Positions 2-49,177 of a stretch of 64,000 bases of DNA are shown here, piece after piece. This stretch comes from a virus. Made by a program: the position numbers and the translations under genes. Numbering within the stretch: position 1 is the stretch's first letter; every line of letters begins with the position of its first letter. Under the pieces are notes generated by a model. The model saw only the letters and a program-made list of their open reading frames with translations. It was not told the DNA's origin and made no database searches. The stretch is from IMG/VR virus record IMGVR_UViG_3300035128_000056, positions 1 to 64,000 of that record; one strand, given 5' to 3'.

Positions 2-595
2 CACGCCGGTGAAGACTGGCTTGCATGGTACCTCTACTGCTGGACTCGGCAAGATCGTCACCTGCATCAGTGGGAGGCCGACGAGCGTCGGCACGCGCTG
101 CGCAGTCGCGACGAGATATTCCGCGTCGCAGCATCGCGGCTCGCGGCACGCTATCAGACACTCGTGCTCGAGGGTACCAACTCGACCAAGAGCGGGCTTC
201 TCAACCTCGCCGATCTCGCCAGCAAGGCAGCCTCTACCGAAGCGGAGACCAAGGCGGACGACGCCCAGCGTGCGCAGCGAGTGAAAGCCGCGCCGGGCGA
301 GTGCAGGTCAGCTCTTGTCCAGGCATTCCGTGGCTCCGTCGAACCAGAGCCGTTGGAGCGCACCACGACCGAGTGCCACCACTGCCACGGGCTATGCGAG
401 TGGGACGCTGCACGCGAACTGCGCCACACATGCGAGCACTGCGGAGCACGGTGGGATCAGGACGCAAACGCAGCGAAGAATCTGCTCCACCGCAGACGCG
501 AGAGGCTCAATGGTGCATCGAACTCCGGAACCGCTCGCAACGCAAAAAAACCGCGCCAGAATGCTGGCGAAGCAGCATCCGACGCGGCAGAATAG
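2..595 (+). CDS. TnpB/Cas12-family (type V-like) RNA-guided nuclease, C-terminal ~198 aa; 5' end lies outside the window
   Basis: Frame 2 is open from nt 2 (track ORF 164..595 is only its Met-initiated tail). Translation shows ARYQTLVLEG (RuvC-II Glu context), zinc ribbon CHHC...CEHC, then DQDANAAKNLL (RuvC-III D-x-N-A-A), the canonical TnpB/Cas12 C-terminus. A repeat array starts 80 nt downstream on the same strand. Confidence 0.75.
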   Translation, partial: HAGEDWLAWYLYCWTRQDRHLHQWEADERRHALRSRDEIFRVAASRLAARYQTLVLEGTNSTKSGLLNLADLASKAASTEAETKADDAQRAQRVKAAPGECRSALVQAFRGSVEPEPLERTTTECHHCHGLCEWDAARELRHTCEHCGARWDQDANAAKNLLHRRRERLNGASNSGTARNAKKPRQNAGEAASDAAE

Positions 596-674
596 TGGAG
601 TTGTGGTGTGCGAAATCAGACCGCTCGCAAAGCACCTCGCAAGTCAGCGAGAACACTGGAGGCACGACAGGTGC

Positions 675-1148
675 CTCCAACAAGGCAGCCCGACGCCTTC
701 AAGTCGGGACGCCTGCGCGGCGGCTCGTATTTTCAACGAACGAAGGCTCCAACAAGGCAGCCCGACGCCTTCAAGTCGGGACGATGCGGTCGAATTTGGC
801 GCACCTAGCGCTAGCGCGACTCCAACAAGGCAGCCCGACGCCTTCAAGTCGGGACAATGAATGGATCGAGGTTGTCGCATTTGTGCGAGGTCGCCTCCGA
901 CAAGGCAGCGCGATGCCTTCAAATCGCGACCCATTCTGTCAGCGCATCATCGATCCCGAGGACTGGCTCGCGATGTTCAGCTCCAACACGGCAGCCCGAC
1001 GCCTTCAAGTTGGGACGACCCAGGGGCTTGCTTAAGCGACTCCGACAAGGCAGCGCGATGCCTTCAAATCGCGACGCTGACGCGACCCTTGGCCCGTGCC
1101 CTCCATGGGGCTCTCCGACAAGGCAGCTCGACGCCTTCAAGTTGGGAC
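675..1148 (+). CRISPR. CRISPR-like array, 7 x 36-nt repeats with 6 spacers (36, 37, 39, 50, 23, 37 nt)
   Basis: Repeats at 675-710, 747-782, 820-855 (all CTCCAACAAGGCAGCCCGACGCCTTCAAGTCGGGAC), 895-930 and 1040-1075 (CTCCGACAAGGCAGCGCGATGCCTTCAAATCGCGAC), 981-1016 and 1113-1148 (variants with GTTGGG). Each ends in a 6-bp hairpin plus AC directly before the spacer (type V crRNA geometry). Same strand as the nuclease gene. Confidence 0.8.
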
Positions 1149-1176: not shown

Positions 1177-1617
1177 TTAACGGTACCGATCACGCAGCGA
1201 CTCGATCTGCTGCTGATGCCGCGCCAGTTCGCTGTCCACTTCGCGCCTGCGATCCTGGTCAGCCTCGCGGTCCGAAATGCGTTGCCCGCCTAGCCCCTTC
1301 ACGTCTGCCTTTAGCTCCGCTAGGTCCGACGCAATTGCAGGCAGAGAGTCGAGTCGCGCTTTTGTAACCGGGTCCAACTCCACCTGGCCGAAGCCTGCCA
1401 TCCACTGCACGAGAACCGAAGCAACTGCAGTGATCACGGCAGCAACAACTGGAGGGGTCCACAGTCGAGCTTGCGCCGCAATCAGAGAAGGCTGCTTCGG
1501 CGGAGGAGGCAGATGCTCGTCATGGACTCGCGATGGCCGTGACTCCGCCTCTGCGAGTTGCTCCTCGACGTCAGCCGGCGGTACTAGACGACCACCGCAG
1601 TTGACCAGGCGATGCAT
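1177..1617 (-). CDS. Membrane-anchored coiled-coil protein, possible spanin-like lysis accessory
   Basis: 146 aa. Hydrophobic segment PPVVAAVITAVASVLVQWMAGF followed by a charged heptad-like C-terminus. ATG 3 nt after the stop of the upstream gene. Last gene of the endolysin operon. Confidence 0.45.
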   Translation of the reverse strand: MHRLVNCGGRLVPPADVEEQLAEAESRPSRVHDEHLPPPPKQPSLIAAQARLWTPPVVAAVITAVASVLVQWMAGFGQVELDPVTKARLDSLPAIASDLAELKADVKGLGGQRISDREADQDRRREVDSELARHQQQIESLRDRYR

Positions 1618-6414: not shown

Positions 6415-7284
6415 TCATTCGGCAGCGCACGCCTCCACCCAATCGAGCACCGCGGGCACCGACGTATTCACTCCTGGGAATCCCGGCCGACCACAGCCTC
6501 GCCCGAAGCTCACGATCCCGAGCTGCTTGCCGTCGCGCACCAGCGGCCCCCCGCTGTCCCCGTAGCAGGCATCGAGATCCTTGCCACCGGCGCAGAGCAT
6601 CGTGTCGTCGAGCGCCAGCGGGTAGGCCTGCCAGCACTGCGCCCACGGCACCAGCGGTAGCTCAGCTTGCAACAGCACCGACGACCCAGAGCCGCTCTCA
6701 GACGTCCGCCCCCAGCCCAGCACCAGAGCGGTCCCGTCGTCTGGCGCGACCCGGGCAAGCTCAATAGGTGGCACACCGACAGGATCGGCGAGAATCAGCA
6801 CGGCGACGTCGTGCCCGCTGGTCGTGCTCGTCCACCTCCAGTGGTTGCGCGTCTCCGTGATCCCGATGCGCCGCCCCCCGCTGGTCAGATCCTGGGTTCC
6901 GACGAGCAACGTGTCCGCGGACGGGTCCACCTGACAGTGCGCCGCGGTCAACGCCGCGCGCTCGCCGATCACGGTTGCGGCGCAAAACTGGTGCCCGCCG
7001 ATCATGAGCGCCGCAATCCACGGAGCAGCGCCAGGCGGCGCCGGAGTCCCACCGACGACGCGCGAGACGACCTGCCGTTGGACGTCGCTGCGCCCACTGG
7101 GGAGGTAGCGGCACTCGGTCATTCCACCGGTACCGCCAGTGCTCATAGCTCCACCAGTGGCCAGCGCGCCGCCTGTGCTCGAGCCACCGGTTGCAGCGGG
7201 CGGCGGTGGGTCAGGAATTTTGCACGTGGCCGCCAGCAGTAGAGGGGCGATGGCGAGCAACGCCAGCCAGGTCCAGCGATTCAT
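6415..7284 (-). CDS. Trypsin-like (S1) serine protease lipoprotein
   Basis: Start at MNRWTWLALLAIAPLLLAATC (ATG 7284, GGAGG RBS, lipobox LAATC). Gly/Thr-rich linker, then VVGG..., TAAHC (His), DVAVLIL (Asp), GDSGGPL (Ser). Confidence 0.8.
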   Translation of the reverse strand: MNRWTWLALLAIAPLLLAATCKIPDPPPPAATGGSSTGGALATGGAMSTGGTGGMTECRYLPSGRSDVQRQVVSRVVGGTPAPPGAAPWIAALMIGGHQFCAATVIGERAALTAAHCQVDPSADTLLVGTQDLTSGGRRIGITETRNHWRWTSTTSGHDVAVLILADPVGVPPIELARVAPDDGTALVLGWGRTSESGSGSSVLLQAELPLVPWAQCWQAYPLALDDTMLCAGGKDLDACYGDSGGPLVRDGKQLGIVSFGRGCGRPGFPGVNTSVPAVLDWVEACAAE

Positions 7285-7450
7285 CGAATGGCCTCCACCC
7301 GCTCCACCTCGGTGTAACCGCCGCACCCGTCCGGTACTAGCCGCGTCATCACGATGGTATCGCTGCGCACATCCGGATGGGGAACTGTTGGCCTGGTCCA
7401 CACTGGATTGCACAGCGGACACGGAATCGACGTGCAGTAGTGCTTTGAAA

Positions 7451-7741
7451 TCACAGCAGCCCCTCATCACGAGCGACAGCCACGGCCGCGTCAACTGCGT
7501 CAGCCGGATCCGCCGAGCGTTGCATCAGCGCAGCATCCCAGGCGTCGAACACCTCGGGGAATCCGCAGAGCCACGACGCCGTCTGTTCTAGCGGCCAGCC
7601 ATACTCGACTGCCGCCTCCTCGACGAGCTCGTGCTCAGCCAGAGCTAGCGCGCAGACCGAGTCCGCGCCATCGATGACCGGGCGCACTGCTGCACATCCG
7701 CTCAACAGCGCGGCGACGAGAACTAGCTTGATGGTGTTCAT
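7451..7741 (-). CDS. Small lipoprotein
   Basis: 96 aa. MNTIKLVLVAALLSGC lipobox. Strong RBS (aggaggagagagaagtcATG). Confidence 0.6.
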   Translation of the reverse strand: MNTIKLVLVAALLSGCAAVRPVIDGADSVCALALAEHELVEEAAVEYGWPLEQTASWLCGFPEVFDAWDAALMQRSADPADAVDAAVAVARDEGLL

Positions 7742-8423: not shown

Positions 8424-9971
8424 TTACGGTGCGCTCGGTAGCACAACTGTCGGCCGTGGCGCCGTCGCGAGCGCAGCTACACCGCCCGGCGTGGCCACGA
8501 CATCGACCGCGTTCTCGCCATCGCGCATTGCTTCTGTCGGCGTAATCCCGAGCGTCCACGTCCGATCGACGCCAACAGCCGTCCCAGCGGGAACACCGTT
8601 GATCGTCACCTCCACACGCTCATTCGCAGGCCAGCAGCGGCCAGTGATCTCACCATATTCTCCAACACGTAGTGGGTTCGTCTCGAAGTCGGTGGCGAGG
8701 TTGCATGCATGCTGACCGTGTGTCGCGATAGCCTCGGTTGCGGCATCAATCACGCGCCCCTGTTCACTCAGCCCGACCGGATCCGTGCGATGAACGCCGT
8801 CGCCAAGCTCGCCAGCTGCCGTCGCTTCTCTACCGCGTTTCAGCAGTCCGCGTGTGTCGATGAATAGCACGCTTGGAACAACCGGCAGCACCTCATCGTA
8901 GATGGCATTACAGTACGATTTCTGCCCCGCAGGAGGATCCGCGTTGCCTGAGTATGCCGTGCGAATCACAACACGGGCGGTCGGCACAGCTGCGCGCACG
9001 AGTCCGATAAGCTCGATCATGTGCTCACCAAAGCCTGTTGGATCATCGTTGGTCCCGATGTCGATCGTCAGATGCAACGGACTGTTGCCAACGATCCGCG
9101 GCAGCACCTCGCTCCAAAACGCTGCTGGCACGACGTCTGTGTTGAGCCAATGATTGCTCAGCGACGCTCCGCCGACACTTGGGTTATAGATCACGACACC
9201 AGGATCATCGCGTCCGAAAATCACCGGGGGCAACGCGACGAGTTCGCCGTTCACCGACATCGCCTCTGGCTCGGCAACCCAGTTGAAGTTCACGTTTCCA
9301 GACGTGTGCGACCACCCGGCAGCAACCTGCACAGAGATCTCGGCGTAGGAGCCTTCCTCGAGTGACCCATAGTCGTAGTACGCAGAGATTGGTGAGTCGT
9401 CGGACGGCGTCGAGTCGTTGTCGGTGCGCAACCACAGCGCGAGTCCGGGCGCAGACTCCACCTTGCCTGTTACCCCGTAGACGACCCCGCGCAACGTGCA
9501 CGCCTCGCCCTCGAGCTGCGCGAAGAAGTTCGGGTAGTCGTCTTTTGAAAGCGCCGGCTGAGTCAGTCGGCAGCTCCACTCGTCCGACGGCAGCGTAGTC
9601 CCAAGAAACTCACCGACCGACCCCAGACAATCCCAGTCGACCGGCGTGACCTTCGTGCTTGTCTGCGAAACATTCTGTGCAACCGCAATGTTCTCGACGT
9701 CGAAATTCGTGTTCGAGAACACAAGCCCTGGGTGAGTAGACGCGCCAGCGAAATCAACGAACGCAGTCGCCGCCAGCGCCGCGTCCGCCATTCGTAGCGA
9801 TTTACTCGCAACGTCGCGCGAGTCACAGATCCTTAGATCGATGATTCGTCGCGTCGGGCTGCCCTGCTCCTGTGCGATCTGCGAAGGTGAGTAGTGCTCC
9901 GGCCCCGGCGATGCGCCACAGGTCCGAGCTACGCACATCGCTAAGCCAATCATCATGCTTAGTCTCATCAC
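8424..9971 (-). CDS. Secreted SGNH/GDSL-family hydrolase (esterase/deacetylase), probably tail-associated
   Basis: 515 aa with signal-like N-terminus. SGNH blocks VGGASLSN, IDIGTNDD and GDGVHRTD (DxxH). Start overlaps the stop of the LamG-like gene (GTGA at 9971 or ATG at 9968). Confidence 0.6.
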   Translation of the reverse strand: MMRLSMMIGLAMCVARTCGASPGPEHYSPSQIAQEQGSPTRRIIDLRICDSRDVASKSLRMADAALAATAFVDFAGASTHPGLVFSNTNFDVENIAVAQNVSQTSTKVTPVDWDCLGSVGEFLGTTLPSDEWSCRLTQPALSKDDYPNFFAQLEGEACTLRGVVYGVTGKVESAPGLALWLRTDNDSTPSDDSPISAYYDYGSLEEGSYAEISVQVAAGWSHTSGNVNFNWVAEPEAMSVNGELVALPPVIFGRDDPGVVIYNPSVGGASLSNHWLNTDVVPAAFWSEVLPRIVGNSPLHLTIDIGTNDDPTGFGEHMIELIGLVRAAVPTARVVIRTAYSGNADPPAGQKSYCNAIYDEVLPVVPSVLFIDTRGLLKRGREATAAGELGDGVHRTDPVGLSEQGRVIDAATEAIATHGQHACNLATDFETNPLRVGEYGEITGRCWPANERVEVTINGVPAGTAVGVDRTWTLGITPTEAMRDGENAVDVVATPGGVAALATAPRPTVVLPSAP

Positions 9972-13309: not shown

Positions 13310-14152
13310 TCATGGCAGGTATGAAAGATGCCTTGTGACCCATGCCGAACCGGACCAGATCAACTCTGCTGAAAAGCAATAGCCGCTTGCTGTGCGCAAC
13401 ACTGGCCCGGCCCAACCAGTGGCAGTGATTGTTAGGTTGTATGAAGTGTCGGCATTCGTTATCGTGATGACGTCACCAGCAGCAACGCCGTTGCCGATCG
13501 TCCATGCCCTGTTTAGAGAGAACACCCCGTTCGGGTTGTGTAGGTGATCTCCACTGGTCAGGCTCAGAGATCTATTTCCATCTGTGGCATTCTCAAAGTA
13601 CCTTTGGCGGACGCGCCCCGTGCCACTGGTACTCACAGGAGCTGTCAGATCGAAGCCAGCGAACGACGGCGTGCCTGTGAAATCTGGGTCTCCAGGGAAA
13701 TCTGGATCTCCGCTGAAAACCGGGTCCCCGCTGAACGTCACTGTACCGGAGAAGGTATGGTTGCCTGACCACGTTGGTCCACCAGCCCACGTACCAGAAA
13801 TGGTTCCGCCACCAGACTGGAGTGTCCCAGCCATCGTGATCTGGGTCTGAAACGTCCACGTGCCGGTGGCTTGTGGGTTTCCAGCGACGACCCCAGTCAA
13901 GCTACCACCGTCGAAGGTCAATTCAGCACCCGACTCAATGCTCAGCGTGCCGGTGACTTCATGGTTGGTGCCGGCCATCGTAATCCCAGCACCGCCAATC
14001 TCGACTGCCGCTGCAGGCGCCCAGGTCCCGCCGTCGTCGCCGTTGATCGACTTGTAGATGCTCTCGTCGATCGACCAGAACTCGCCCTGAGTAACGATGG
14101 TTCCGGCTGCCCAAGCTCCTAGTGACCCACGAATGTACGAAAAATGTGCCAT
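13310..14152 (-). CDS. Tail fibre / fibre-like repeat protein
   Basis: 280 aa. Gly/Thr-rich with short repeats (SGDPVFSGDPDFPGDPDFTGTP). Follows the baseplate I-like gene. Confidence 0.5.
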   Translation of the reverse strand: MAHFSYIRGSLGAWAAGTIVTQGEFWSIDESIYKSINGDDGGTWAPAAAVEIGGAGITMAGTNHEVTGTLSIESGAELTFDGGSLTGVVAGNPQATGTWTFQTQITMAGTLQSGGGTISGTWAGGPTWSGNHTFSGTVTFSGDPVFSGDPDFPGDPDFTGTPSFAGFDLTAPVSTSGTGRVRQRYFENATDGNRSLSLTSGDHLHNPNGVFSLNRAWTIGNGVAAGDVITITNADTSYNLTITATGWAGPVLRTASGYCFSAELIWSGSAWVTRHLSYLP

Positions 14153-14159
14153 GGATCTC

Positions 14160-15119
14160 CTACGTCGCCAGCGTACCGATCGGAGTGATTCCGATCATTC
14201 CCTCTTCAACCTTGAACGGTCCGAGTTGCCCAGCCGAGTACTCCTCGACGATGTCCCATGTATCAACGGCACGCATCAGCTTGCGTAGCTTGGCGTTGAT
14301 CTGCGTCCGCCAGGAATTCGATTGTGCCACCGTCGAGTCTGTAACGATGAGCGTGTGGCGCCCAGTTGTGAACGCCGTCGGCCATGGTTCTGTCGAGACG
14401 ATTGTTCCGGAAGCGTGGGCCCGTGCGAAGTTGGCAGTAAGCGTGGTGCCGTTTACCGACTGAACATCGACGGACTCCTGCACACCGAGGACGCCTGGAT
14501 CCACGACAAGTTTGTCGCCCACAACGAACATGTCGGTTGACCCGCCGACGTAGGTGGTGTCGATGGTGTTGTCACCAATTGTGTGAACAGCGGTGTTCAA
14601 CGACCGTCGCTTGGCGACCGTGGTAGCTGGCTTCCACGTCCCAGGACGTAGGCTGATGTGGTCCCACTGGTACGGACTGACGTAGTACTCGGTGTCGTCA
14701 ATCTTGCGTACCGCGATGAGGTGGCTGCCGAGCAACTCCTGCATCGCCGTATGCACGACGTCAGCGCGACACCCTTGCGCCGCTTGCTGGGCGACATCCA
14801 GCGCGGCACGCCGCTCGTCATCGCTTGCAGTGGGCAGCGGGGTCAGTCCGTAGACTTGCTCCCAGTAGCTCAGGAGTTCGACCGACTTCGCCGGGTTCAT
14901 GTTGCCGCGGACCCGATCGAAATTCCGCTTGGCAGTCGCCAACCGCATTGCGTGAGAATAGAACCTGGCGTGGATCGTCTCGTCCACCCTCTCGCCACCG
15001 TCCGCCACCATTTCTTCGCCACCGAACGCGCGAATCATGGACTCGTAGATGGTCTCCGCCTCGGACCTCTGCGAGGTGAACCGCAAGTGCCCGAACCGGG
15101 CGAAGCAAGAGAACTTCAT
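14160..15119 (-). CDS. Baseplate/tail protein, P2 gpI / Mu gp48-like
   Basis: Start at MKFSCFARFG (ATG 15119, ATGA overlap). ELLSYWEQVYGLTP resembles the ELLP-W-E-LGL signature of the gpI/DUF2313 family. Lies downstream of the J-like gene. Confidence 0.5.
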   Translation of the reverse strand: MKFSCFARFGHLRFTSQRSEAETIYESMIRAFGGEEMVADGGERVDETIHARFYSHAMRLATAKRNFDRVRGNMNPAKSVELLSYWEQVYGLTPLPTASDDERRAALDVAQQAAQGCRADVVHTAMQELLGSHLIAVRKIDDTEYYVSPYQWDHISLRPGTWKPATTVAKRRSLNTAVHTIGDNTIDTTYVGGSTDMFVVGDKLVVDPGVLGVQESVDVQSVNGTTLTANFARAHASGTIVSTEPWPTAFTTGRHTLIVTDSTVAQSNSWRTQINAKLRKLMRAVDTWDIVEEYSAGQLGPFKVEEGMIGITPIGTLAT

Positions 15120-18655: not shown

Positions 18656-19896
18656 CAGTCGTCCTCGATGGCGAATATCAAGTCCTCTGGTCGGTAGAGC
18701 TTGACGTTGGTCGTGGTTCCTCCGCCCATGCTGCGCGCAAACGTGACGTCGCCGACCCACATGAGCGCATTCTCTAGACCAATCCTCTCGTCGTTCACCA
18801 TGCAACAGAAATTTGGAAGCGGAACCGTGCGCTGTCCTGGAGCATGAAGCGCAGGAACGGTGTGCCCGCTGAACTGGTATTCGATATTCCAGGCTTCACG
18901 CCGTTCTTCCGCAGCCAGCCTACGAGCTTTGTATTCCGCTTCCTTGGTGGTCCGAATCTGCTCGTCGATGTCGAACCTGACCGTCCGTTTGGCTCCATAA
19001 TCGTTGACGCGCCGAAGCATCGCGCCGTCGTCGTGGAACCCAGTGACCTGTTTCTGCCCATCCTTTCCTCCCCCGGCCCTCCCTAACACTCGCACGCGCC
19101 AGTGGCGGTTCGTGGTGTCGCGGTGCAGGCGGACCAGGCGGGCGTTTCCTTCCCCGTGTAGGTTGCGCCGGATATCAAACGCTGGCTCCTGGTCGCCATT
19201 GGGTGCGCTGAGCAGAAACCATCCTTGCGGCCCGCACCAAAGGAAGAGCCCGGCCCGCATCAACTGGGCTCTGAGCCATGCGTAGCGTTGCTCTCCCGCG
19301 TTTCCGGTGATGACGTTGTAAACGACCCGAGCGGTCCCCGACTCCACCTCCTCGACTGTCTGCGTCTTCCCGTCTACGCTCGGCGTGTTGGACTTCGGTG
19401 GCTTGACCTGCGTCCCCTGGATCGCCATCAACTCGCGCGCCGTGTCGCCGCTCTTGAGGTCGTTAACAGTAAACCCCACCGCTTCGAGTTGTGACAGTAC
19501 CAGGTCGTAGTAGCTTTTCTCTGAGTAGCTTGTGTCCGCCTTGAAGTAGCTCTTGAAAAGCTCGCGCATGTTGTCGCGGCCTTGGTACTCGAGCAGCGTC
19601 CCACCTTCCCCCTCGACCACGTCCACCGTGTCGAGTCTTCCGGTCTGCAGGACCACTTCTTTTGACTGGTTCTCTCCTGGGTATGGGATGTGACGTAGCG
19701 CCAGTTCGAACGGCATCTCGTTGTCGTGCCGAGCCCACTGCTCTTGGATCGTTGCCGCCCCGAGCTTCAGCGAGAATGCGCTGGGCTGTTGGAACACGGA
19801 GACGTTTACCGAGTAGTCCTCGGTGCGGTATGCCACGTCCTCGTCGTTGATGCGGATCGAAACCTCGTCCGCCAGCCAGCCTCGATCCGCCATCAC
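18655..19896 (-). CDS. Baseplate hub, P2 gpD / Mu gp44-like
   Basis: 413 aa. Lies between the DNA-circulation-like gene and the spike gene, matching Mu gp43-gp44-gp45 order. Confidence 0.5.
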   Translation of the reverse strand: MMADRGWLADEVSIRINDEDVAYRTEDYSVNVSVFQQPSAFSLKLGAATIQEQWARHDNEMPFELALRHIPYPGENQSKEVVLQTGRLDTVDVVEGEGGTLLEYQGRDNMRELFKSYFKADTSYSEKSYYDLVLSQLEAVGFTVNDLKSGDTARELMAIQGTQVKPPKSNTPSVDGKTQTVEEVESGTARVVYNVITGNAGEQRYAWLRAQLMRAGLFLWCGPQGWFLLSAPNGDQEPAFDIRRNLHGEGNARLVRLHRDTTNRHWRVRVLGRAGGGKDGQKQVTGFHDDGAMLRRVNDYGAKRTVRFDIDEQIRTTKEAEYKARRLAAEERREAWNIEYQFSGHTVPALHAPGQRTVPLPNFCCMVNDERIGLENALMWVGDVTFARSMGGGTTTNVKLYRPEDLIFAIEDD

Positions 19897-20792
19897 GCCG
19901 CCGGGATATACTTGATGTCGGTTCCAGCTGGGATGTGGTAGGCGTCACCGATCGCGTTGAGATTCAGAATGTCGATCGCGTAGCTGCTGTCGCCGTCGTA
20001 GATGGCGCTCGACACCTCGTCCGCCGTCATCTCGCTCGGTGTCGTGTAGGTCTTGAACTGATCGATCCCGAGCGCCGTCTCTGCGAAGTCGTTGACGGAC
20101 TCCCAAAGGCGCTTCATCGCCTCGAGCAATTCCCAATTCTCCGGATCGTTCAGCAAGTCGAGCGTCTCGTCCGCCTCCTGGAACAGCGCCCGCATCCCCT
20201 CGATCTTCTCCGCCAGGAACCCCGCCCACATTTGCGCCGTGTCCCTGAACGCCAGGATCGCGTTCACCCCTTCTCGGATCTGCTGGAAGACGCTTGGCAT
20301 CGGATCCGGGCTGAGCGATTCGAAGTCGCCGAGTTGCACAGACATGACCCCGACCTGGAACTGCAATGTCGTGAGCGTGAGGAAGTCGGACTCCTGGTCC
20401 TCTCGAAACGTCAGCTCAACGCTCTCACCGCTGCGCCATTGGACCGAGAGCTCGCGCGTCCAGTTCGTGCAATAGGCGCGAATCTCACCAATGTTGGGGA
20501 TGTAGAGATCTTGTGTGTCGCCGTTCTCGAAGTACTGCTGTAGCACCCCGAGATCGGTCAGCAGGTTTCGATTTGCGAAGCGCCCGCCACCCCTTCCAAT
20601 TCGCTCGTCGAACTTAGACGACACGCTGATTTCGTACAGCTTGCGACCGAGCTTCTCCGCAGCCCCTCCATGAACGTGAGGATATTCGTGGACGTGATCT
20701 CGCTGTACACCACGGACGGTGATCCGCTGGTACGGCATCGTGATACCGCCGAACTTCAGCGGCTGCAGTGTATCCAGGTATGCTTCGGCCAT
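19893..20792 (-). CDS. Mu gp43-like tail protein (DNA circulation N-terminal domain-like)
   Basis: 299 aa. N-terminus LKFGGITMPYQRITVRG...HEYPH fits the family pattern as recalled. Lies immediately after the tape measure gene. Confidence 0.5.
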   Translation of the reverse strand: MAEAYLDTLQPLKFGGITMPYQRITVRGVQRDHVHEYPHVHGGAAEKLGRKLYEISVSSKFDERIGRGGGRFANRNLLTDLGVLQQYFENGDTQDLYIPNIGEIRAYCTNWTRELSVQWRSGESVELTFREDQESDFLTLTTLQFQVGVMSVQLGDFESLSPDPMPSVFQQIREGVNAILAFRDTAQMWAGFLAEKIEGMRALFQEADETLDLLNDPENWELLEAMKRLWESVNDFAETALGIDQFKTYTTPSEMTADEVSSAIYDGDSSYAIDILNLNAIGDAYHIPAGTDIKYIPAA

Positions 20793-34685: not shown

Positions 34686-35864
34686 TCAGGCGAGAACGTG
34701 GAACCAAACAGTGACGTCGAGCTCACCAGCATCCAAATCAGCTAGATCGTGGCTTCCGTCCGGGGTGAACGTGATAGTCAATTGTTCAGACGAAAAGCTG
34801 CCAACCGGGTGTACTCCGGCGGTGCTGAACGCTAGCTTCCCTGTCGCTGCCCCAGTGAAAACGTCGTGCCCGTCACCGATCGCATCAGCGTCAGTTCCGC
34901 CAACGTCGATGGTCACCGCCGTAGCTCCTCCACCACTGAACAGCGTAGTGATATCAACCTCGCTCGCTACCACTACAGCATTTGCTGGCAGAGCGGCTCC
35001 GATATTTAGAGCTTGTGCAACCCCATCAGACGATTCAGTGAGATCAGCCTGAGTAACGTTCAGCGTCCGCTTCTGGAAGATAGCGGCAGTGTTCGTGTTG
35101 ATCAGCGCGCGGTTTTCCGCGAGCGCTGCCTCGACTGTCGTCCCAGTGATTAGCGTCCCGGAGTCTTCGATGCCGACCAGTGAAGCGCCCTCCCCATTGG
35201 AGGTAGACGCAAGCAGCGTCTGCAGCGCCGTCCCAGTCGTAGTCGTCGCGATAGCCGAGAAGGTCAGTGCGGTCGTGTTGAGTACGATCGCGTCGTCCGT
35301 CGTGAGCATGAACAGGGTGTTCCCGTTCGCTGTACCCTCGTTTACAGTGATGAGGACTCCGGCGCGCATCTGGTCGCTCTGGGAGTGCGTAGATGCACGA
35401 ACCATCGACCACTTTGCGTCGGCGGCTCCGATGCCGGTCAGTACGTAGAGACCGTTGTTGGCACCAGTGGACTCGTTCTTCACCAGCACCAGCTCACCAA
35501 CGGCAAGGTCGGTTAGGCCGTCGATGCCGGTGTCATTCAGCGCTGCGTTTGCGTCGGCTGTCAGCGTGTTGCTGGTTCGAGTATTGGCTGGTAGTGCAGC
35601 AGCAGTAGCGACGCGCACACGAATCAGCGCCGACGCCTCTCCGCGCACCAGCCACTTGCCGGACCCGCTCGAAGGGGACAGCCCATCAGAGGCAGTCGAG
35701 TCATCGTCGAACTGGAAGACCTTGCCTCCAGCTACTACCACCATTCCGTCCGCGCGATACGCTGGACCCAATGCCTGCAGCGCCGCCTCGGTGGCAAATG
35801 CTCCGCCAAATCGCTCAGAAACTTCTCGCGCCGCCGCGTCGCCGTACTTGAGTGCACCTGACAT
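34686..35864 (-). CDS. Fibre/tailspike-N-terminus-like protein inserted between terL and portal; its upstream region is matched by CRISPR spacer 1
   Basis: 392 aa. LAVGELVLVKNESTGANNGLYVL and GASLVGIEDSGTLITGTTVEAALAE resemble motifs of phage fibre/tailspike proteins. AAGGA RBS 10 nt upstream of ATG 35864. Confidence 0.5.
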   Translation of the reverse strand: MSGALKYGDAAAREVSERFGGAFATEAALQALGPAYRADGMVVVAGGKVFQFDDDSTASDGLSPSSGSGKWLVRGEASALIRVRVATAAALPANTRTSNTLTADANAALNDTGIDGLTDLAVGELVLVKNESTGANNGLYVLTGIGAADAKWSMVRASTHSQSDQMRAGVLITVNEGTANGNTLFMLTTDDAIVLNTTALTFSAIATTTTGTALQTLLASTSNGEGASLVGIEDSGTLITGTTVEAALAENRALINTNTAAIFQKRTLNVTQADLTESSDGVAQALNIGAALPANAVVVASEVDITTLFSGGGATAVTIDVGGTDADAIGDGHDVFTGAATGKLAFSTAGVHPVGSFSSEQLTITFTPDGSHDLADLDAGELDVTVWFHVLA

Positions 35865-35874
35865 GGTGTCGTTT

Positions 35875-35910
35875 CCTTCGTTCGTTGAAAATACGAGCCG
35901 CCGCGCAGGC
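35875..35910 (-). other. Protospacer: exact 36/36 match to CRISPR spacer 1 (711-746)
   Basis: Plus strand CCTTCGTTCGTTGAAAATACGAGCCGCCGCGCAGGC is the exact reverse complement of spacer 1 GCCTGCGCGGCGGCTCGTATTTTCAACGAACGAAGG. On the minus strand it is flanked 5' by CACCCACCCC and 3' by AAACGACACC-ATG. Confidence 0.95.
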
Positions 35911-36006: not shown

Positions 36007-37602
36007 TCAGAATGGGGCGCGACCGTGACGGCCGGCCATGGATCTGCGAGCACGCATCGCGTCTGGCCCGAAGCGCGAATGCAGGCGCGTGTTGGCGATG
36101 AGGCGCTTGTTCGTCTCGGCGGCTCCGGAGTAGTCGACGGCGCCGCTTTCGCACGCCAGAGCCAACCCCATCGCGTTCGCATGGTCAGGGCTGCGCTTCA
36201 GGCGCTTCTTGATCGAGTCCTGTGACTCGACGCGGATCTTACCGGCTGGCGTGAGAGAGTACGTCGGCGCCACCAGTTCGCGCTCAAGCTCGTGGTTCGG
36301 CTCTAGTGCTGCCCCGTCAACCAGCCACTCCCGCAACATCCACCACATCTCGTCGCGGATTCGATCGAAGCGGTCCGTGTCGTTCGCAGACTGCGCTGAG
36401 TTGATCCCAACCACTGAGAGCCCGACTATGTCGCGCAACTCCTCGATCACACCATCGACGACGCCAGCGCCAAGCCCGCCCTCGTCGATTCCAATCACGA
36501 CCGGCTCGTTGCCTCGTCGCAACTCCTTGGCTGCACTGACGATCTCGCCCGTAACCTCGGTGGTCGGCGCCCCGTGGATCGTCCTGTGGGTCCCGCCGTA
36601 GTCGCCGCGTTTCCACGCGATTACGGTGTCATCGTCTCCGTAGCGCGCGATGTCGGCTCCGATGCAAAGCTTCCCGGATGCGGTTCCTGCCGGATCCAAT
36701 GACGGGTCTTCGCGCCAGAGTTCCAGCGCTGCCTCGAGTGCGAAAAGCGGAACGACCACGTTGGGTCCGGACTTGGGGAAGTCGCCACCAACACGGACGT
36801 CCCAGACGGGTTCCCCGGGCCCGCCGTACTCGCGCGCCATCTCCTCTGCCCAGATGGGCTCAGCGAGACCCGGTACCACAATCTCGCCAGCCAGGATGTT
36901 CGGCGACTCGAGGCTGGAGATATGAAGCAGCGCCCCTTCCTCGAACAGGTTCCGCTTGTCGTGGAACGAGTCGAAGAAGTGGCCGGTAGTAGTAGTCGGG
37001 TTCCCGGTCTCGACGAGCTTTCCGCCGCCGGCCAGGTTGCCCATGATGGCCTCGAAGACGGCGTCCTTCACGCCGCTGGCTTCGTCGACCAGGTAGAGGA
37101 CCTCCGGCGCCGAGATGCCCGAGAAGGAATCCGGGTCGTCAACGGTGAACCCGAGGATCTGCGAGCCGTTCGGAAGCAGGATGCCGGTGGATGGGTCCAG
37201 CGGGACGACTGGCAGCGCGTTGCCGCGCTGTGCCATGGAGCGGAGCTTCCTCACCTCGCGCCAGATCGTCTCCTTTACCTGCCGCGCTGTCGGATGAGTG
37301 GCAACGACTCGAACCCCCGGGCGAGTCAGTGCGAACCACCACGCGAGCAACGCGATCGAAAGAGTCTTGCCGGTCTTGTGACCGGACCTGCACGCTACAC
37401 GGCGAAACTTGGCGACCGCTCGGCAGAGGTCTGCCTGCTTCGTGTAGCCTTCGAACTCAAGACGGAGTCCAAAGAATTCCTTCGCGAAAGCAACTGGGTC
37501 GTTGCGGTATGACTCAATGGAGTCGGCCGTCCTCTTCTGCTTCCTGACCTTCCGCGCCGCCTCCGCCCAACGCGGCGACAATGCGATCGAATGTTTCGTC
37601 AT
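36007..37602 (-). CDS. terL: Terminase large subunit
   Basis: 531 aa. Walker A context RSGHKTGKTLSIALLAWWF. Follows the small-subunit gene, with an 89-nt overlap if ATG 37602 is used. Confidence 0.8.
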   Translation of the reverse strand: MTKHSIALSPRWAEAARKVRKQKRTADSIESYRNDPVAFAKEFFGLRLEFEGYTKQADLCRAVAKFRRVACRSGHKTGKTLSIALLAWWFALTRPGVRVVATHPTARQVKETIWREVRKLRSMAQRGNALPVVPLDPSTGILLPNGSQILGFTVDDPDSFSGISAPEVLYLVDEASGVKDAVFEAIMGNLAGGGKLVETGNPTTTTGHFFDSFHDKRNLFEEGALLHISSLESPNILAGEIVVPGLAEPIWAEEMAREYGGPGEPVWDVRVGGDFPKSGPNVVVPLFALEAALELWREDPSLDPAGTASGKLCIGADIARYGDDDTVIAWKRGDYGGTHRTIHGAPTTEVTGEIVSAAKELRRGNEPVVIGIDEGGLGAGVVDGVIEELRDIVGLSVVGINSAQSANDTDRFDRIRDEMWWMLREWLVDGAALEPNHELERELVAPTYSLTPAGKIRVESQDSIKKRLKRSPDHANAMGLALACESGAVDYSGAAETNKRLIANTRLHSRFGPDAMRARRSMAGRHGRAPF

Positions 37603-38009: not shown

Positions 38010-39326
38010 CTAGTTAGCGTTCGCGCTATGTCGCTCCGCTTTTTGTCCTGTCAGTTTCTCCCAGCGCTCCACGATGACGTCGCAGTAGCGCGGGTCGAGT
38101 TCAATTGTGAAGCAGCGGCGTACGGTGCGCTCGCATGCGATGAGCGTAGTCCCTGAGCCGCCGAATGGGTCCGCCACCATGTCGCCCCGCAGCGAGGAAA
38201 GCTTGATGCAGTACTCGACCAGTTCCACCGGCTTCATGGTTGGGTGTTCCGCGGAGCGCGTCGGCTTGGAAAACTCAAGCACGCTGGTCTGTTTACGATC
38301 TCCGCGGAAGCGATGCTCAGCGCCAGGCCTCCACCCGTAGAAGATTGGCTCGTGCTGGTAGTGGAAGTCGGAGTGGCCAAGAACCAAAGACCCCTTGTCC
38401 CAGACTAGGTACTGCCTCCAGATGTCCAGGTCGCGAAGCACCGCGCCGAAGTGGTGGTGCAGTGGGCCGGGCGGAGCCGCTACATACCAACCGCCGCCCG
38501 GCTTCGTTGCTGCGCAGGCAAGCCCAAGGGCATTGCGCAACAACTGGTGCAGTTTCTCCGGATCGAGTTTGTCGTTCTCGATGGTGAGAGCGTCCTTGGT
38601 CTTTCCGACATAGGCCACACCATAGGGCGGGTCGGTCCATACCATCTCGACCTCGACACCATCCCAGAGCGAAGCGTCTTGCGAGTCTCCGCAGACCAGT
38701 GTGTGTTCGCCGAGCGTCCAGACGTCGCCGAGTTTGGTGCGCGGCTCCTTCGGAACTTCAGGGATCGAATCCAGGTCTTCCTCGCCGAAGTCGTCCTCTT
38801 GCCCCTCTAGCAGTCGGTCCAGTTCACCGGGGTCGAGCCCGAGATCCGCTATCAGCCCTTCCTCTGCCAGGTCGGCGAGCACCGAACCAAGCAGCTCGTC
38901 GTCCCAGTCGGCCTTCTCGCCGGTCTTGTTGTCGGCCACGGCGAGCGCGTCGCATTGGGCTTCGGTCAGCCCGAACTTGCGGCGCACCGGAACCTCGCCG
39001 GTGTCCTTCGTGCGAATCGCGTCCGGGTGCCAGTCTTCACGTTCCCGAGTTCGAGCTCGCATCCAAAGCTGCTTCAGCCGCTCGGCCGCCTTCGCCCGGG
39101 TGTGGCCGGCGATGATCCGATCATCCTCGCCACGGACCAGGATCGGGGCGCCCCAACCGAATGCGATGATGCTCCGCGCAACATCGTCGACCGCCTGCGT
39201 GTTCTTCCTCGGGTTGCGCCTCCAGGGGGAGAGAAACGAGACGGTGAGCCACTCGAGTTCGGGCGGCGGTCCGGCGTCGCGCGTACGTGACTGGTCTGGC
39301 TTTTTCTTCCTGGTTGACCCCGCCAT
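38010..39326 (-). CDS. ParB-like nuclease domain fused to N6/N4 DNA methyltransferase
   Basis: 438 aa. ILVRGEDDRIIAGHTRAKAAERL (ParB N-terminal domain), MVWTDPPYGVAYVGK (DPPY), DPFGGSGTTLIACE (SAM-binding). Confidence 0.85.
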   Translation of the reverse strand: MAGSTRKKKPDQSRTRDAGPPPELEWLTVSFLSPWRRNPRKNTQAVDDVARSIIAFGWGAPILVRGEDDRIIAGHTRAKAAERLKQLWMRARTREREDWHPDAIRTKDTGEVPVRRKFGLTEAQCDALAVADNKTGEKADWDDELLGSVLADLAEEGLIADLGLDPGELDRLLEGQEDDFGEEDLDSIPEVPKEPRTKLGDVWTLGEHTLVCGDSQDASLWDGVEVEMVWTDPPYGVAYVGKTKDALTIENDKLDPEKLHQLLRNALGLACAATKPGGGWYVAAPPGPLHHHFGAVLRDLDIWRQYLVWDKGSLVLGHSDFHYQHEPIFYGWRPGAEHRFRGDRKQTSVLEFSKPTRSAEHPTMKPVELVEYCIKLSSLRGDMVADPFGGSGTTLIACERTVRRCFTIELDPRYCDVIVERWEKLTGQKAERHSANAN

Positions 39327-39903: not shown

Positions 39904-40315
39904 CTTGGCTTGGCCACCCAGCAAGCACTTCGAGACGCTCCGCTAGACCCTTCAGCCCATTTGCCAGTTCGCTGTCCACCTGACGCAGCTCCTCAAGCTG
40001 TGGCTCCACCGTTTGCTCGATCTGCTCGGCGACTCGTTCCCGGATCCGATCGTCAATCCGGCCTAGGAACTTAGCAACGTCTCGTGCCACCTCGTCCGCC
40101 TTCGACCGGCGCATGTCCGGGCAGTGGCGGTAGACGCTCGACTCGGTAACCTGCCATGGGCTCTTGGGGTTCGGTCCGCTGCGGGTCATGATGGTGACAC
40201 CCTGGGAGCGTTCGCGACGGCGGAGCTCCCGGAGTAGGCGCCTGCCGGGGCGGGGTCCCTTCCAGCCGAGTCGACGCGCCATTTCGGACAGGGGGATTGG
40301 CTCAGTAGTGCTCAC
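39881..40315 (-). CDS. HTH DNA-binding protein with coiled-coil C-terminus
   Basis: 144 aa. GTG start with GTGA overlap. IPLSEMARRLGWKGPRPGRRLLRELRRRE is HTH-like. Confidence 0.5.
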   Translation of the reverse strand: MSTTEPIPLSEMARRLGWKGPRPGRRLLRELRRRERSQGVTIMTRSGPNPKSPWQVTESSVYRHCPDMRRSKADEVARDVAKFLGRIDDRIRERVAEQIEQTVEPQLEELRQVDSELANGLKGLAERLEVLAGWPSQVAHGSPR

Positions 40316-41106
40316 CGGCCGTCCTCCGATGCGTGGTGGTCATCGCCGTATTCGAGCGTGGGCAGGTCTCCACCAGTAGCCGGCGCGTCGCCCACCACGA
40401 AGTTCCAGATCCTTCGGGCAAGGGTCAGGAGCTCTCTCGATTGTTCGTCAGCAGCCTGGAATTGCAGCTTTCTGTTCGCCGTCGGTTTGCGGGACTGCTC
40501 ATCGATGAGGTTCGCGAACGCCTCACGATGCCGCAGGGCACTGATCTTGCGGCCACGCAGCATCGTCTTGCCGGCTGGGGTCAGGTGCCAGACCGCTACC
40601 CAGGTGTTCCCGTCGGGGGCGTAATAGCACTCCAGAGCCTCGCGACTCGCCTGGTGCACGTTCCCCACGCCTGCCAGGCGGCTCCCTACGATGAGGTCGG
40701 CGGCGTCCGGGCAGTATGACCCGCCCAGTTTCGATCGGACGCTGGAACCGGTCATGCGGGCCGTCAGCGGGCCGTGGGCTCCGGACAGGTAGCGCGCATG
40801 GTACCCGCACCCATCGCACTCCGGGCAGACCCGGTCGAGCATCGGGGGGAGGTCGGGAGCGTTGATTCCGATCCATTCAAGCATCATCCGCTGGGTCTCG
40901 GATGCTGGTCGGCGGTCTGGCTTCGACGCCACGAAACCGCGTCCGCCGCACTCGTAGCACGGCTCGGCATGGTGGGCGTAGAGCGCCGCCCGGTCGAGCT
41001 GCGCCCCAAATGTGCTCGCTTGCCCTCGGGCTCCGCCACCACCACGCATATACCCACGGATATCCGTTGCGTCGTCGGCGCTAATGAATCCCGAGCACTC
41101 ACACAT
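40312..41106 (-). CDS. Hypothetical protein with DnaJ-type CxxCxGxG zinc-finger pair
   Basis: CYECGGRG and CPECDGCG. The track start (41271) is a TTG with poor codon usage for ~55 codons, so the start was moved to ATG 41106 (alternative 41049). Confidence 0.5.
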   Translation of the reverse strand: MCECSGFISADDATDIRGYMRGGGGARGQASTFGAQLDRAALYAHHAEPCYECGGRGFVASKPDRRPASETQRMMLEWIGINAPDLPPMLDRVCPECDGCGYHARYLSGAHGPLTARMTGSSVRSKLGGSYCPDAADLIVGSRLAGVGNVHQASREALECYYAPDGNTWVAVWHLTPAGKTMLRGRKISALRHREAFANLIDEQSRKPTANRKLQFQAADEQSRELLTLARRIWNFVVGDAPATGGDLPTLEYGDDHHASEDGR

Positions 41107-41268
41107 GCCAGGCGGAAGCGAACGCTCGACCGCTTCCAGCCATCCACTACGACAATCGAATATGGCGGGGATCACGACGACACCACGATGGGCTGAACGA
41201 CACCTGAACTTGACCAATTGCTCGCCATCCGTCAGATTCCTCTCTGCAGGGTGCCGCACACCAGGCCT

Positions 41269-41298
41269 CAACGCCGCCTCCCGCCAGGGGCGGCGTTG
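41269..41298. other. 10-bp stem GC-rich hairpin CAACGCCGCC-N10-GGCGGCGTTG in a ~340-nt low-coding gap
   Basis: Perfect inverted repeat. On the plus strand it is followed by CTCGTTTC, with no clear U-tract on either strand. Confidence 0.35.
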
Positions 41299-48747: not shown

Positions 48748-49177
48748 GGCCAGCCTCTAATCTTTGCATCCACGCATCGAAACGACCTTGCGTCACGGTG
48801 AGCGCAGAAGCCAGAGCGACGCAACTCCCTGACGCCTTCCATGCGACAACATTCCCGTCGTCGTCAGTATCTGGGACTGGCGCTTCCACGACCTGCGGAC
48901 CGGGACCTAGAAAGTCGTCTGGTCCTAACCGCAGTTTGCGAAACTCGCTTGTCTCACTACCTATCCGGTCGAACGTCTCGGCCATGGTCGGAATACGGAA
49001 CGTCCACGAAAGATTGGCGTGAAGCTCGTCAACCAACCGTCGTTCTGAAGTAACCTCAGCGTTCCTCATCATGCGCTCGGAAACATGGCGCACAAAGTCC
49101 CGGGCGGGAGCTTTGTCGAGTTCTTGTTGCGAGATGGAAAACGTATTGTGAAAGCAGCGCAAATTCCTGACCGTCAC
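48740..49177 (-). CDS. Hypothetical protein
   Basis: GTG start 49177 overlapping the upstream TGA. 145 aa. Confidence 0.45.
   Translation of the reverse strand: MTVRNLRCFHNTFSISQQELDKAPARDFVRHVSERMMRNAEVTSERRLVDELHANLSWTFRIPTMAETFDRIGSETSEFRKLRLGPDDFLGPGPQVVEAPVPDTDDDGNVVAWKASGSCVALASALTVTQGRFDAWMQRLEAGRA

Follow-up and report, generated by a model that had tools for sequence, protein, structure and literature searches.

A phage-borne type V-M CRISPR locus whose newest spacers include copies of the phage's own genome

The first 64,000 nucleotides (nt) of IMG/VR virus record IMGVR_UViG_3300035128_000056, hereafter the window, begin inside a gene of the Cas12 family that is followed on the same strand by an array of short palindromic repeats, clustered and regularly interspaced (CRISPR). 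The gene encodes Cas12m, the effector of type V-M systems; the array is of the Cas12m type, and both lie within a tailed phage genome of ~90 kb. The leader end of the array differs between strains with identical flanks, and of the five newest spacers, each specific to one strain, three copy stretches of the phage's own genome. Two puzzles for the V-M field are the source of spacers for arrays without Cas1-Cas2 and the purpose of these systems on mobile elements. Phage and prophage V-M loci have already been reported, so this locus adds to a known class, with unusual spacer content; leader-end turnover between otherwise identical strains, self-derived newest spacers and the hint of their recurrence were not found in the literature searched.

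The effector is a Cas12m protein

The open frame at the left edge of the window (2–595, plus strand) ends with a stop codon at 593–595, and its translation closes with ...YQTLVLEG...CHHC...CEHC...WDQDANAAKN...AE*. A first-pass annotation of the window had pointed out the frame open to 595, the YQTLVLEG and DQDANAAKN motifs and the CHHC...CEHC pattern, and translation confirmed each of them. A full-length protein of 709 amino acids (aa), P0163, is a member of the fragment's 90%-identity cluster and has a C-terminus identical to that of the window frame. Its RuvC triad (D390 in AVAVDVGWR, E569 and D666) is the canonical D-E-D. Coordinates of these and other features are collected in Table 1.

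Sequence comparison placed the protein with Cas12m. The window fragment alone matched Cas12f1-like_TNB in Pfam (2e-7), and its best match in the PDB was 23vw_A, 'CRISPR-associated DNA-binding protein Cas12m' (E = 1.5e-21), followed by UnCas12m4a and Cas12m2. With P0163 as the query, phmmer again returned 23vw_A (E = 7.7e-37, residues 225–675), with UnCas12m4a at 1.2e-11. The best PADLOC model for P0163 was Cas12u1 (5.6e-65, 218 bits, profile positions 75–532 of 533), the old name of the V-M effector from the time when type V-M was called V-U1. In contrast, the NCBI model for TnpB (NF040570) scored 21 bits against a cutoff of 100 and covered the last 44 residues only. The fold gave the same answer. 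An AlphaFold2 model of P0163 (25 homologues as input; mean predicted local distance difference test score, pLDDT, 84.9; predicted template-modelling score, pTM, 0.69) had 8hhl, 8hio, 8pm4 and 8hhm as its top four Foldseek matches, all of them Cas12m (Cas12m2, GoCas12m), with E-values of 7e-23 to 1e-17 and template-modelling (TM) scores of 0.43–0.59; Cas12f structures followed at ~1e-8 or weaker and TnpB at 6e-6 or weaker. Because the sequence matches and the predicted fold both point to Cas12m, we conclude that the effector is Cas12m and the system type V-M. The first-pass view that the subtype could not be assigned from a C-terminal fragment is not upheld, since the fragment alone finds 23vw_A at the E-value given above. 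That annotation had also named an ordinary IS200/IS605 TnpB as the case that would overturn it; the full-length protein, checked by profile and by fold, matches Cas12m instead.

P0163 is probably a DNA binder rather than a nuclease, because all characterised Cas12m proteins behave in this way. MmCas12m2, GoCas12m and MsCas12m process their own CRISPR RNA (crRNA) precursor, use no trans-activating CRISPR RNA (tracrRNA) and bind very stably to DNA that carries a protospacer-adjacent motif (PAM) at its flank (PMC10442227, PMC11013384), and no tested Cas12m variant cleaved DNA, including four with a D-E-D triad (PMC11013384). The earlier label of a TnpB/Cas12-family nuclease therefore stands as to the Cas12 family, the RuvC motifs and the zinc ribbon, while its last word, by analogy, probably does not.

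The Cas12m family, as collected here at E < 1e-3, comprises 2,109 cluster representatives. The nearest full-length relatives of P0163 are 667–694 aa long and 49–65% identical to it. The closest, P0009 (nt 642–3637 of L049, Logan contig SRR6462991_38678), is 65% identical over the matched C-terminal region and 60% over the full-length alignment. Its gene overlaps the stop codon of an upstream NAD-dependent epimerase gene by 4 nt, a setting unlike that in the present phage, and the contig stops 45 nt past the gene, probably at an array.

The array has the repeat architecture of Cas12m systems

Seven 36-nt repeats separate six spacers of 36, 37, 39, 50, 23 and 37 nt, and the first repeat starts 79 nt past the cas12m stop codon, in agreement with the first reading of seven direct repeats of this length with unique spacers ~80 nt past the gene. 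Repeats 1–3 are identical, and the four on the trailer side carry 2–5 changes. Each repeat combines a hairpin (CCCGAC/GTCGGG in the consensus; minimum free energy −11.9 kcal/mol) with an interlocked pseudoknot stem (AAGGC/GCCTT). The hairpin had been described as CCCGAC–GTCGGG in every repeat; it is indeed present in all seven, although with other letters in four of them, being fully compensated in repeats 4 and 6 (CGCGAT/ATCGCG) and preserved through G-U pairs in repeats 5 and 7.

Both stems are conserved beyond this phage. In an alignment of repeats from 18 arrays that stand beside Cas12m homologues, 83.8% of the cells belonging to the two stems were paired, versus at most 43% in controls in which the pairing partners were slid by 1–3 columns, and 9 of the 11 stem pairs change on both sides across the 18 arrays. 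Taken separately, the 6-bp hairpin was paired in 89.8% of cells (5 of 6 pairs changing on both sides) and the pseudoknot stem in 76.7% (4 of 5 pairs covarying). Repeats of homologous Cas12m arrays are ~36 nt long and end in ...GAGAC, ...GCGAC or ...TCGAC; those of the window end in ...GTCGGGAC. The hairpin and pseudoknot agree with the 'stem' and 'PK' of the 56-nt Cas12m2 crRNA, which consists of a 36-nt handle and a 20-nt guide (PMC10442227), and with the pair of stems depicted for the repeats of eight Cas12m systems (PMC11013384). We conclude that the array is a real CRISPR of the Cas12m type. No tracrRNA anti-repeat was found in silico in the window, L054 or L052, the longest repeat-complementary stretch being 13 nt and lying 9 kb away.

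The repeat has no second copy in the window on either strand, with up to 11 mismatches allowed, and its pattern was found neither in the 185,579 species genomes of GTDB nor in the search of IMG/VR. Among metagenome contigs, two others carry it, one with a related array (L003) and one with a solitary copy (L002). A dispersed host repeat of the repetitive extragenic palindromic (REP) or miniature inverted-repeat transposable element (MITE) type, another case that the first-pass annotation had held against its own reading, was rejected on these grounds: the window, GTDB, IMG/VR and the metagenomes yielded no dispersed copies.

No sigma-70-like promoter and no plus-strand terminator was detected by consensus scan between cas12m and the array, so that co-transcription of the array with cas12m is possible. 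Transcription of the array in the opposite direction was considered, since the 3' flanks of the three protospacers described below (AAACGA, TAACGA and ACGAGT) share ACGA. It was rejected in view of the leader polarity, the same-strand position after cas12m and the ...GAC 3' end common to the 18 arrays.

Three further observations concern the array and its relatives. The spacers at 931–980 (50 nt) and 1017–1039 (23 nt) add up to 73 nt, the length of two normal spacers, and both are kept in the second strain described in the next section; other Cas12m arrays, too, have outlier spacers, of 13, 16, 24 and 51 nt, which suggests that the 50- and 23-nt stretches are not genuine spacers but units that have shifted or lost a part. 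L003 (JGI12109J20283_10580860, nt 718–1270) holds a second array of at least eight repeats in which 6 of the 36 repeat positions differ and all spacers are different, none of them matching the window; the contig ends within the array, so that its effector is out of view. L002 (JGI12109J20283_10566104, reverse strand, nt 1214–1249) carries a solitary related repeat, CCCGCAACAGGCAGCTCGACGCCTTCAAGTCGAGAC, between small open reading frames (ORFs) of a phage-like contig, with neither array nor cas12m in its 1,960 nt; the contig switches from low to high GC content and may be chimeric. Solitary repeat units serve phages as RNA anti-CRISPRs, and the L002 copy recalls them.

Spacers at the leader end turn over between strains

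L001, a 1,831-nt contig from another JGI sample, carries the same locus, with flanks identical to those of the window on both sides (674/674 and 335/335 nt). Its array has nine repeats versus seven in the window. Four trailer-side spacers are common to both arrays and L001 has one extra internal unit, while at the leader end L001 has three spacers and the window two, none of them shared. Identical flanks with different leader-proximal spacers mean that the array turns over. The strain-variable spacers abut the leader, and new repeat-spacer units appear on the leader side: this is the classic signature of polarised acquisition with occasional deletion. Spacer turnover has outpaced any single point mutation in ~1 kb of flank, in a phage in which no adaptation genes were found (see below). 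Strains with identical flanks that differ just in the array are direct evidence that V-M arrays update in nature.

Most of the newest spacers match the phage's own genome

Spacer 1 of the window matched window positions 35910–35875 perfectly (36/36, E = 4e-16), a match absent from the first-pass annotation. The matched site falls in the 142 nt that separate the large terminase gene (36007–37602) from a structural ORF (34686–35864), and it shares positions with both a terminator-like hairpin and the ORF's ribosome-binding site; a sigma-70 promoter scan of the site found nothing. Two of the three leader-end spacers of L001 also have their counterparts in the window. L001 spacer 2 matched 39/39 nt within ORF 40312–41271, which contains two CxxCxGxG zinc-finger motifs, and L001 spacer 1 matched 33/35 nt within the tail-fibre-like ORF 13310–14194, with both mismatches at synonymous third codon positions. 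Most of the new spacers (three of the five that are strain-specific) are thus traceable, and to the phage's own genome. In all three cases the spacer sequence is that of the coding strand. As 5' flanks the sites have CCCC, CGAT and CTCG (n = 3), from which no consensus PAM was derivable. As a separate observation on ORF 40312–41271 (minus strand), the JGI call starts at 40887 (191 aa), and an upstream in-frame CxxCxGxG pairs with the downstream one; the pair makes up a DnaJ-type zinc finger, so the longer, 319-aa ORF is probably the right one and the target of L001 spacer 2 coding.

The older spacers had no match in ~84 kb of phage sequence. Seven non-self spacers had none in INPHARED or PLSDB; for spacers 2 and 3, exact 23-mers were also without a match in IMG/VR.

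An independent read set (SRR11696381) was informative on the spacer 1 match. Its Logan contigs, assembled with k = 31, end at 35904 and ~35882, versus 35904 and 35881 predicted for a 36-nt repeat at 35875–35910 (the second end, obtained by extrapolation, is one base off), and contig ends at the array fall exactly 30 nt into a repeat. Since the breaks fit a 36-nt repeat, the 36-mer stands in two contexts in this read set too.

Table 1. Coordinates of the locus features and of the protospacers in the window
Feature	Position	Strand	Remarks
3' part of cas12m	2..595	+	last 197 codons plus stop of 709-aa P0163
RuvC-II Glu E569 (LVLEG)	170-172	+	from translation
TNB zinc ribbon CHHC...CEHC	374-442	+	C637-C659 of P0163 (CHHC637...CEHC656)
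RuvC-III Asp D666 (WDQDANAAKN)	461-463	+	from translation
11-mer ACCGCTCGCAA	530-540 and 620-630	+	direct repeat; cas12m 3' end and leader
Terminator-like hairpin plus T-run	554..569	-	inside cas12m 3' end; consensus scan, 1 found vs 1.0 expected
Leader	596..674	+	between cas12m and repeat 1; identical in L001 and L054
CRISPR array	675..1148	+	seven 36-nt repeats, six spacers; consensus CTCCAACAAGGCAGCCCGACGCCTTCAAGTCGGGAC
Repeats 1-7	675-710, 747-782, 820-855, 895-930, 981-1016, 1040-1075, 1113-1148	+	
Spacer 1	711..746	+	newest, leader-proximal; GCCTGCGCGGCGGCTCGTATTTTCAACGAACGAAGG; self-matching
Spacer 1 protospacer	35875..35910	-	5' flank CACCCACCCC
L001 spacer 2 protospacer	40956..40994	-	39/39, inside ORF 40312-41271
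L001 spacer 1 protospacer	13462..13496	-	33/35, inside tail-fibre-like ORF 13310-14194

The locus lies within a ~90-kb phage genome

The window contains genes for a tail sheath, baseplate wedge, major capsid protein, portal, large terminase, primase and methyltransferases and is otherwise dense in ORFans; sheath, baseplate, capsid, portal and large terminase within 64 kb bear out the first-pass identification of the carrier as a contractile-tailed phage (myovirus). The window equals, or is an excerpt of, a single 89,885-nt JGI contig (sample 3300042731), whose gene table agrees with it gene for gene. Two Logan contigs from SRR11696381 match the window with 100% identity over 12,447 and 10,572 nt. 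One of them (SRR11696381_49823) runs from window position 1046, in the array trailer, to ~35904; the other (SRR11696381_115931) runs from ~35882 past the window end, through ~27 kb of small early-type genes and the full-length cas12m, to its end 30 nt inside repeat 1. The overlapping contigs close the map into a phage-only circle of ~90 kb, and the CRISPR locus therefore lies within the phage. Extension upstream of nt 1, which had been proposed as a check, was in this way achieved through P0163 and the Logan contig: the complete cas12m is in the phage. The sequence read amounts to ~84 kb of the ~90 kb.

On one side of the locus is an arm of small ORFs that points rightward and on the other the structural arm, which points leftward, and 28 nt separate the array end from the stop codon of a convergent ORF (1177–1617, minus strand), the same distance as first reported. 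Upstream of cas12m are ORFs for HNH endonucleases and a 5'-3' exonuclease, together with an L12-like ORF; a small zinc-ribbon ORF, also upstream, stops 14 nt short of the cas12m start, an operon-like arrangement. No Pfam match to Cas1, Cas2, Cas4, TnpA or an integrase was obtained in the 10 kb upstream, the 10 kb downstream, the sequence beyond the window end or the window ORFs scanned, with ~6 kb of the genome unread and some small ORFs outside the scan. These scans support the earlier description of an adaptation-less, single-effector type V CRISPR. Y1 and serine recombinases likewise had no Pfam match in the 10 kb upstream or in the window, and the left and right transposon ends (LE/RE) had no dedicated model search.

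Two other parts of the first-pass description found no support. The convergent genes had been called a lysis cassette, and Pfam and PHROG gave no match for these neighbouring ORFs; by eye, one has a transmembrane segment and a coiled coil and another an NlpC/P60-like motif. The phage had been called temperate-looking, for which there is no profile support, no integrase being present in any of the ORFs scanned. Most neighbouring ORFs had no Pfam or PHROG match at all, Rfam and tRNA scans of the window were empty, neither the locus nor 24 kb of phage sequence had a BLAST match in INPHARED, and the first 40 nt of the window had none in IMG/VR.

Self-matching spacers in other viral Cas12m loci

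Homologue loci were retrieved from GTDB genomes (13 loci) and from IMG/VR (31 loci). The array very often lies 100–400 nt downstream of the Cas12m gene on the same strand, and in 19 of the 31 IMG/VR loci it is directly downstream. Spacers were searched against ±10 kb around each locus. In L023, two spacers (41/41 and 37/37) match one site (8689–8761) on opposite strands, two genes upstream of cas12m, with 5' flanks CTGC and GAGG. In L036, a spacer matches the 5' part of its own cas12m (36/38, at 9489–9526) and also matches L031 (27/28). Further self-matches were found in L031 (26/28; coordinates listed for L031, 9717–9744 and 20109–20136) and L008 (24/25; 20712–20736). Apart from the L036–L031 match and one 17-nt match at the E-value cutoff, the same search detected no spacer matching another locus. 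There is thus a hint that self-matches recur in viral V-M loci, and recurrence across loci argues against pure accident. The gene targeted in L023 resembles, by eye, a Uma2-type endonuclease.

Probable kin exclusion and alternative explanations

We consider it probable that this complete V-M Cas12m locus of a ~90-kb tailed phage acts in the exclusion of kin, with matches to the phage's own genome tolerated. By analogy with the characterised proteins, Cas12m would cut the array transcript within the repeats into ~56-nt crRNAs, each with a 36-nt handle and a guide of ~20 nt, and the complex would attach very stably to PAM-flanked double-stranded DNA and leave it uncut. Once bound, it would block transcription or replication, the means by which Cas12m interferes in the systems studied (PMC10442227, PMC11013384). 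During infection, new spacers may be inserted in trans, perhaps through a host Cas1-Cas2. Phage DNA would then be the dominant substrate for acquisition, so that the system would come to be aimed at genomes of its own phage lineage, and its most likely role would be the exclusion of co-circulating, superinfecting kin phages. A role of this kind has been put forward for the mini-arrays of viruses as well as for type IV and V-M systems of plasmids (PMC11656645). Self-matches would be tolerated, binding being non-lethal. The perfectly self-matching spacer is part of an assembled consensus, which is easier to reconcile with a non-cutting effector, and non-cutting is the explanation we offer for its persistence.

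Several points weigh against this explanation. Under kin exclusion the carrier would be expected to differ from its target, but spacer 1 is a perfect match to its own contig. The link between spacer and protospacer was made in metagenome assembly and not by a read of a single molecule. At the three protospacers the 5' flanks have no clear common T/C-rich motif, so that some or all of the self-matches may not be bound. The catalytic triad is canonical, and non-cleavage is assumed from the analogy and from the survival of the perfect self-match. The source of spacers in trans is an assumption, and the sequence read covers ~84 kb of the ~90-kb genome.

A first alternative is that the self-matches are inert by-products: a non-cognate host machinery would insert fragments of phage DNA without PAM selection, and the older spacers would do the real targeting. 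The heterogeneous 5' flanks, in L023 as well as here, would be expected, as would targets scattered over the genome and older, shared spacers that match nothing in the phage. Those older spacers, however, have no match in INPHARED or PLSDB, nor in IMG/VR for the two tested, which leaves no alternative target known; in two data sets the assembled consensus has the spacer 1 variant, and self-matches recur across distant Cas12m loci. We regard this alternative as possible though somewhat unlikely. Should the self-matches do nothing, the locus is an ordinary V-M system carried by a phage; should they be functional, a binding-only Cas effector would provide a phage with either kin-exclusion immunity or a self-programmed repressor.

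The latter is the second alternative, in which self-derived guides would silence or time genes of the phage itself and the self-matches would be the function. The complex might, for instance, prevent read-through between the terminase gene and the head genes for as long as it is not titrated by genome copies, or hold late genes off in a carrier state. The spacer 1 site covers the terminator-like hairpin and ribosome-binding site of the structural gene directly after terL, and Cas12m has been proven to block transcription (PMC10442227, PMC11013384). At each of the three protospacers it is the coding strand that carries the spacer sequence, but with n = 3 such agreement would arise by chance with a probability of 1 in 4. 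The recurrence of self-matches, in L036 within its own cas12m and in L023 at one site on both strands, also fits. The targets, in contrast, have no common regulatory logic (an intergenic 5' untranslated region, a tail-fibre-like ORF and a zinc-finger ORF), the flanks offer no consistent PAM, and the self-matching spacers differ between otherwise identical strains, which resembles random sampling and not a conserved guide. Scattered, strain-specific targets argue against a hard-wired regulatory guide, and we think this explanation unlikely. The broader proposition, that phages use a non-cutting Cas12m as a self-programmed repressor whose guides come from their own genomes, are installed without a phage Cas1-Cas2 and turn over, that it silences their own and kin genes, and that this recurs in viral V-M loci, is put forward as a tentative idea that we hold to be doubtful.

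Third, the spacer 1 variant and the intact protospacer could come from different strains merged into an assembly mosaic, in which case the targeting would be purely of kin by kin. At least two array variants coexist in related samples, and the two synonymous sites at which L001 spacer 1 differs from the window mean that strains do differ at protospacers. Arrays, moreover, are classic trouble spots of assembly, and the Logan contigs break there. Yet a single 89,885-nt JGI contig carries both the spacer and the site, and a protospacer variant was seen in none of the sequences compared. The Logan read set, 100% identical to the window over 23 kb, speaks in the same direction, showing just the 36-mer in two contexts. 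A mosaic seems to us quite improbable.

Non-CRISPR origins, either a TnpB of an IS200/IS605/IS607 insertion sequence (IS) with its omega-RNA and REP/MITE-like repeats or a host CRISPR abutting a prophage, have a negligible chance of being right: the C-terminal zinc ribbon and RuvC motifs are common to TnpB, weak NCBIfam TnpB matches exist and the window begins inside the gene with its upstream side at first out of sight, but at 709 aa, with 21 bits to the TnpB profile (cutoff 100) against 218 bits to Cas12u1, a fold far nearer Cas12m and no TnpA or IS features in 10 kb upstream, the TnpB element was rejected, the repeat is absent from the 185,579 species genomes and IMG/VR and stands in a polar array with a variable leader end, and a host CRISPR was rejected since the contig overlaps close a phage-only ~90-kb circle around the locus.

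Comparison with known systems

Type V-M systems (MmCas12m2, 8HHL and 8HIO; GoCas12m, 8PM4; Cas12m, 23VW) share with the present locus an effector homologous in sequence and fold, a C-terminal RuvC and TNB, a downstream array on the same strand with 36-nt repeats of stem plus pseudoknot, carriage by mobile elements, and no tracrRNA or adaptation genes found. At 709 aa, P0163 differs from the solved Cas12m proteins (577–614 aa), to which it is ~20% identical in structural alignments. Its D-E-D triad is that of 4 of the 8 variants of PMC11013384, whereas MmCas12m2 has H-D-D. P0163 is also a new divergent orthologue for the engineering of CRISPR interference (CRISPRi) and base editors. Unlike known V-M systems on plasmids or chromosomes, the carrier is a ~90-kb phage, and the newest spacers match the carrier's own genome.

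The closest precedent is myxophage MV-1, which has Cas12m and an array without adaptation genes, was called the first phage Cas12m, and whose array yielded no protospacers (bioRxiv 10.64898/2026.09.14.751636, Sept 2026). Both effectors are phage-encoded with a D-E-D triad and an adjacent array, without cas1/2/4 or tracrRNA. They are different proteins because length and catalytic-residue spacing differ: compared by description, P0163 has 709 aa with E569 and D666 97 residues apart, and MvCas12m 610 aa with E463 and D555 92 apart. MV-1 is described as temperate with an integrase, whereas none was found here, and the present locus has three self-matching spacers and turnover.

Among other virus- and plasmid-borne systems, mini-CRISPR arrays carried by viruses and holding spacers from related viruses were reportedly described by Medvedeva et al. 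in 2019 in the context of virus-virus conflicts, with superinfection exclusion as the proposed role (summarised in PMC11656645). The likeness lies in carriage by a virus, in the lack of adaptation genes found and in spacers from closely related viruses; the mini-arrays are effector-less and borrow the effector of the host, unlike the present locus, which has its own and in which at least one spacer matches the carrier perfectly. Cas12j (CasPhi) of huge phages is likewise a compact single type V effector with an array and with neither adaptation genes nor tracrRNA, but it is an active nuclease from another branch of Cas12; Cas12j was not among the top 50 fold matches listed for P0163 and was not its best profile.

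TnpB, the ancestor of V-U systems, is a protein of ~400 aa with a single omega-RNA, accompanied by TnpA and IS ends. The present effector has the same RuvC and zinc-ribbon core, with a repeat-spacer array in place of the omega-RNA; TnpA was not found and no IS features were seen. The first-pass suggestion of a TnpB-to-CRISPR intermediate amounts to the general evolutionary view of V-U systems, and is not borne out for this locus, an ordinary active V-M locus.

As far as the work of Benz et al. (2024) is represented in PMC11656645, plasmid type IV-A3 systems acquire spacers in trans and silence without cutting. Within that account they resemble the present locus as interference modules of mobile elements without Cas1-Cas2, CRISPRi-like, with a dynamic array and engaged in competition between related elements. 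They differ in being class 1, multi-subunit, associated with DinG and on plasmids, where here a class 2 single effector is carried by a phage for which we infer acquisition in trans.

Further features of the locus and the genome

The 11-nt direct repeat that the first-pass annotation had noticed in the cas12m 3' end and the leader is real: ACCGCTCGCAA has these two copies and no others in the 64 kb, versus 0.09 expected. The word was chosen post hoc, and the duplication may be due to chance. The terminator-like hairpin in the cas12m 3' end might stop leftward transcripts from the structural arm, which would by then have run antisense through the whole array.

The L12-like ORF upstream of cas12m is 117 aa long (L054, nt 8973–9326, ~0.7–1.0 kb upstream of the cas12m start) and carries a Pfam Ribosomal_L12 assignment in precomputed annotation; it would be a virus-encoded homologue of a ribosomal protein.

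Elsewhere in the window, on the minus strand, are a secreted-type trypsin-like protease (6415–7494; Pfam Trypsin, 9e-47), a DUF5131 protein (49174–50190; 3e-79), a fusion of ParB and an N6/N4 methyltransferase (38010–39326) and the N-terminus of a Mu-type DNA circularisation protein (19893–20792). The portal, too, is Mu-like (Portal_Mu).

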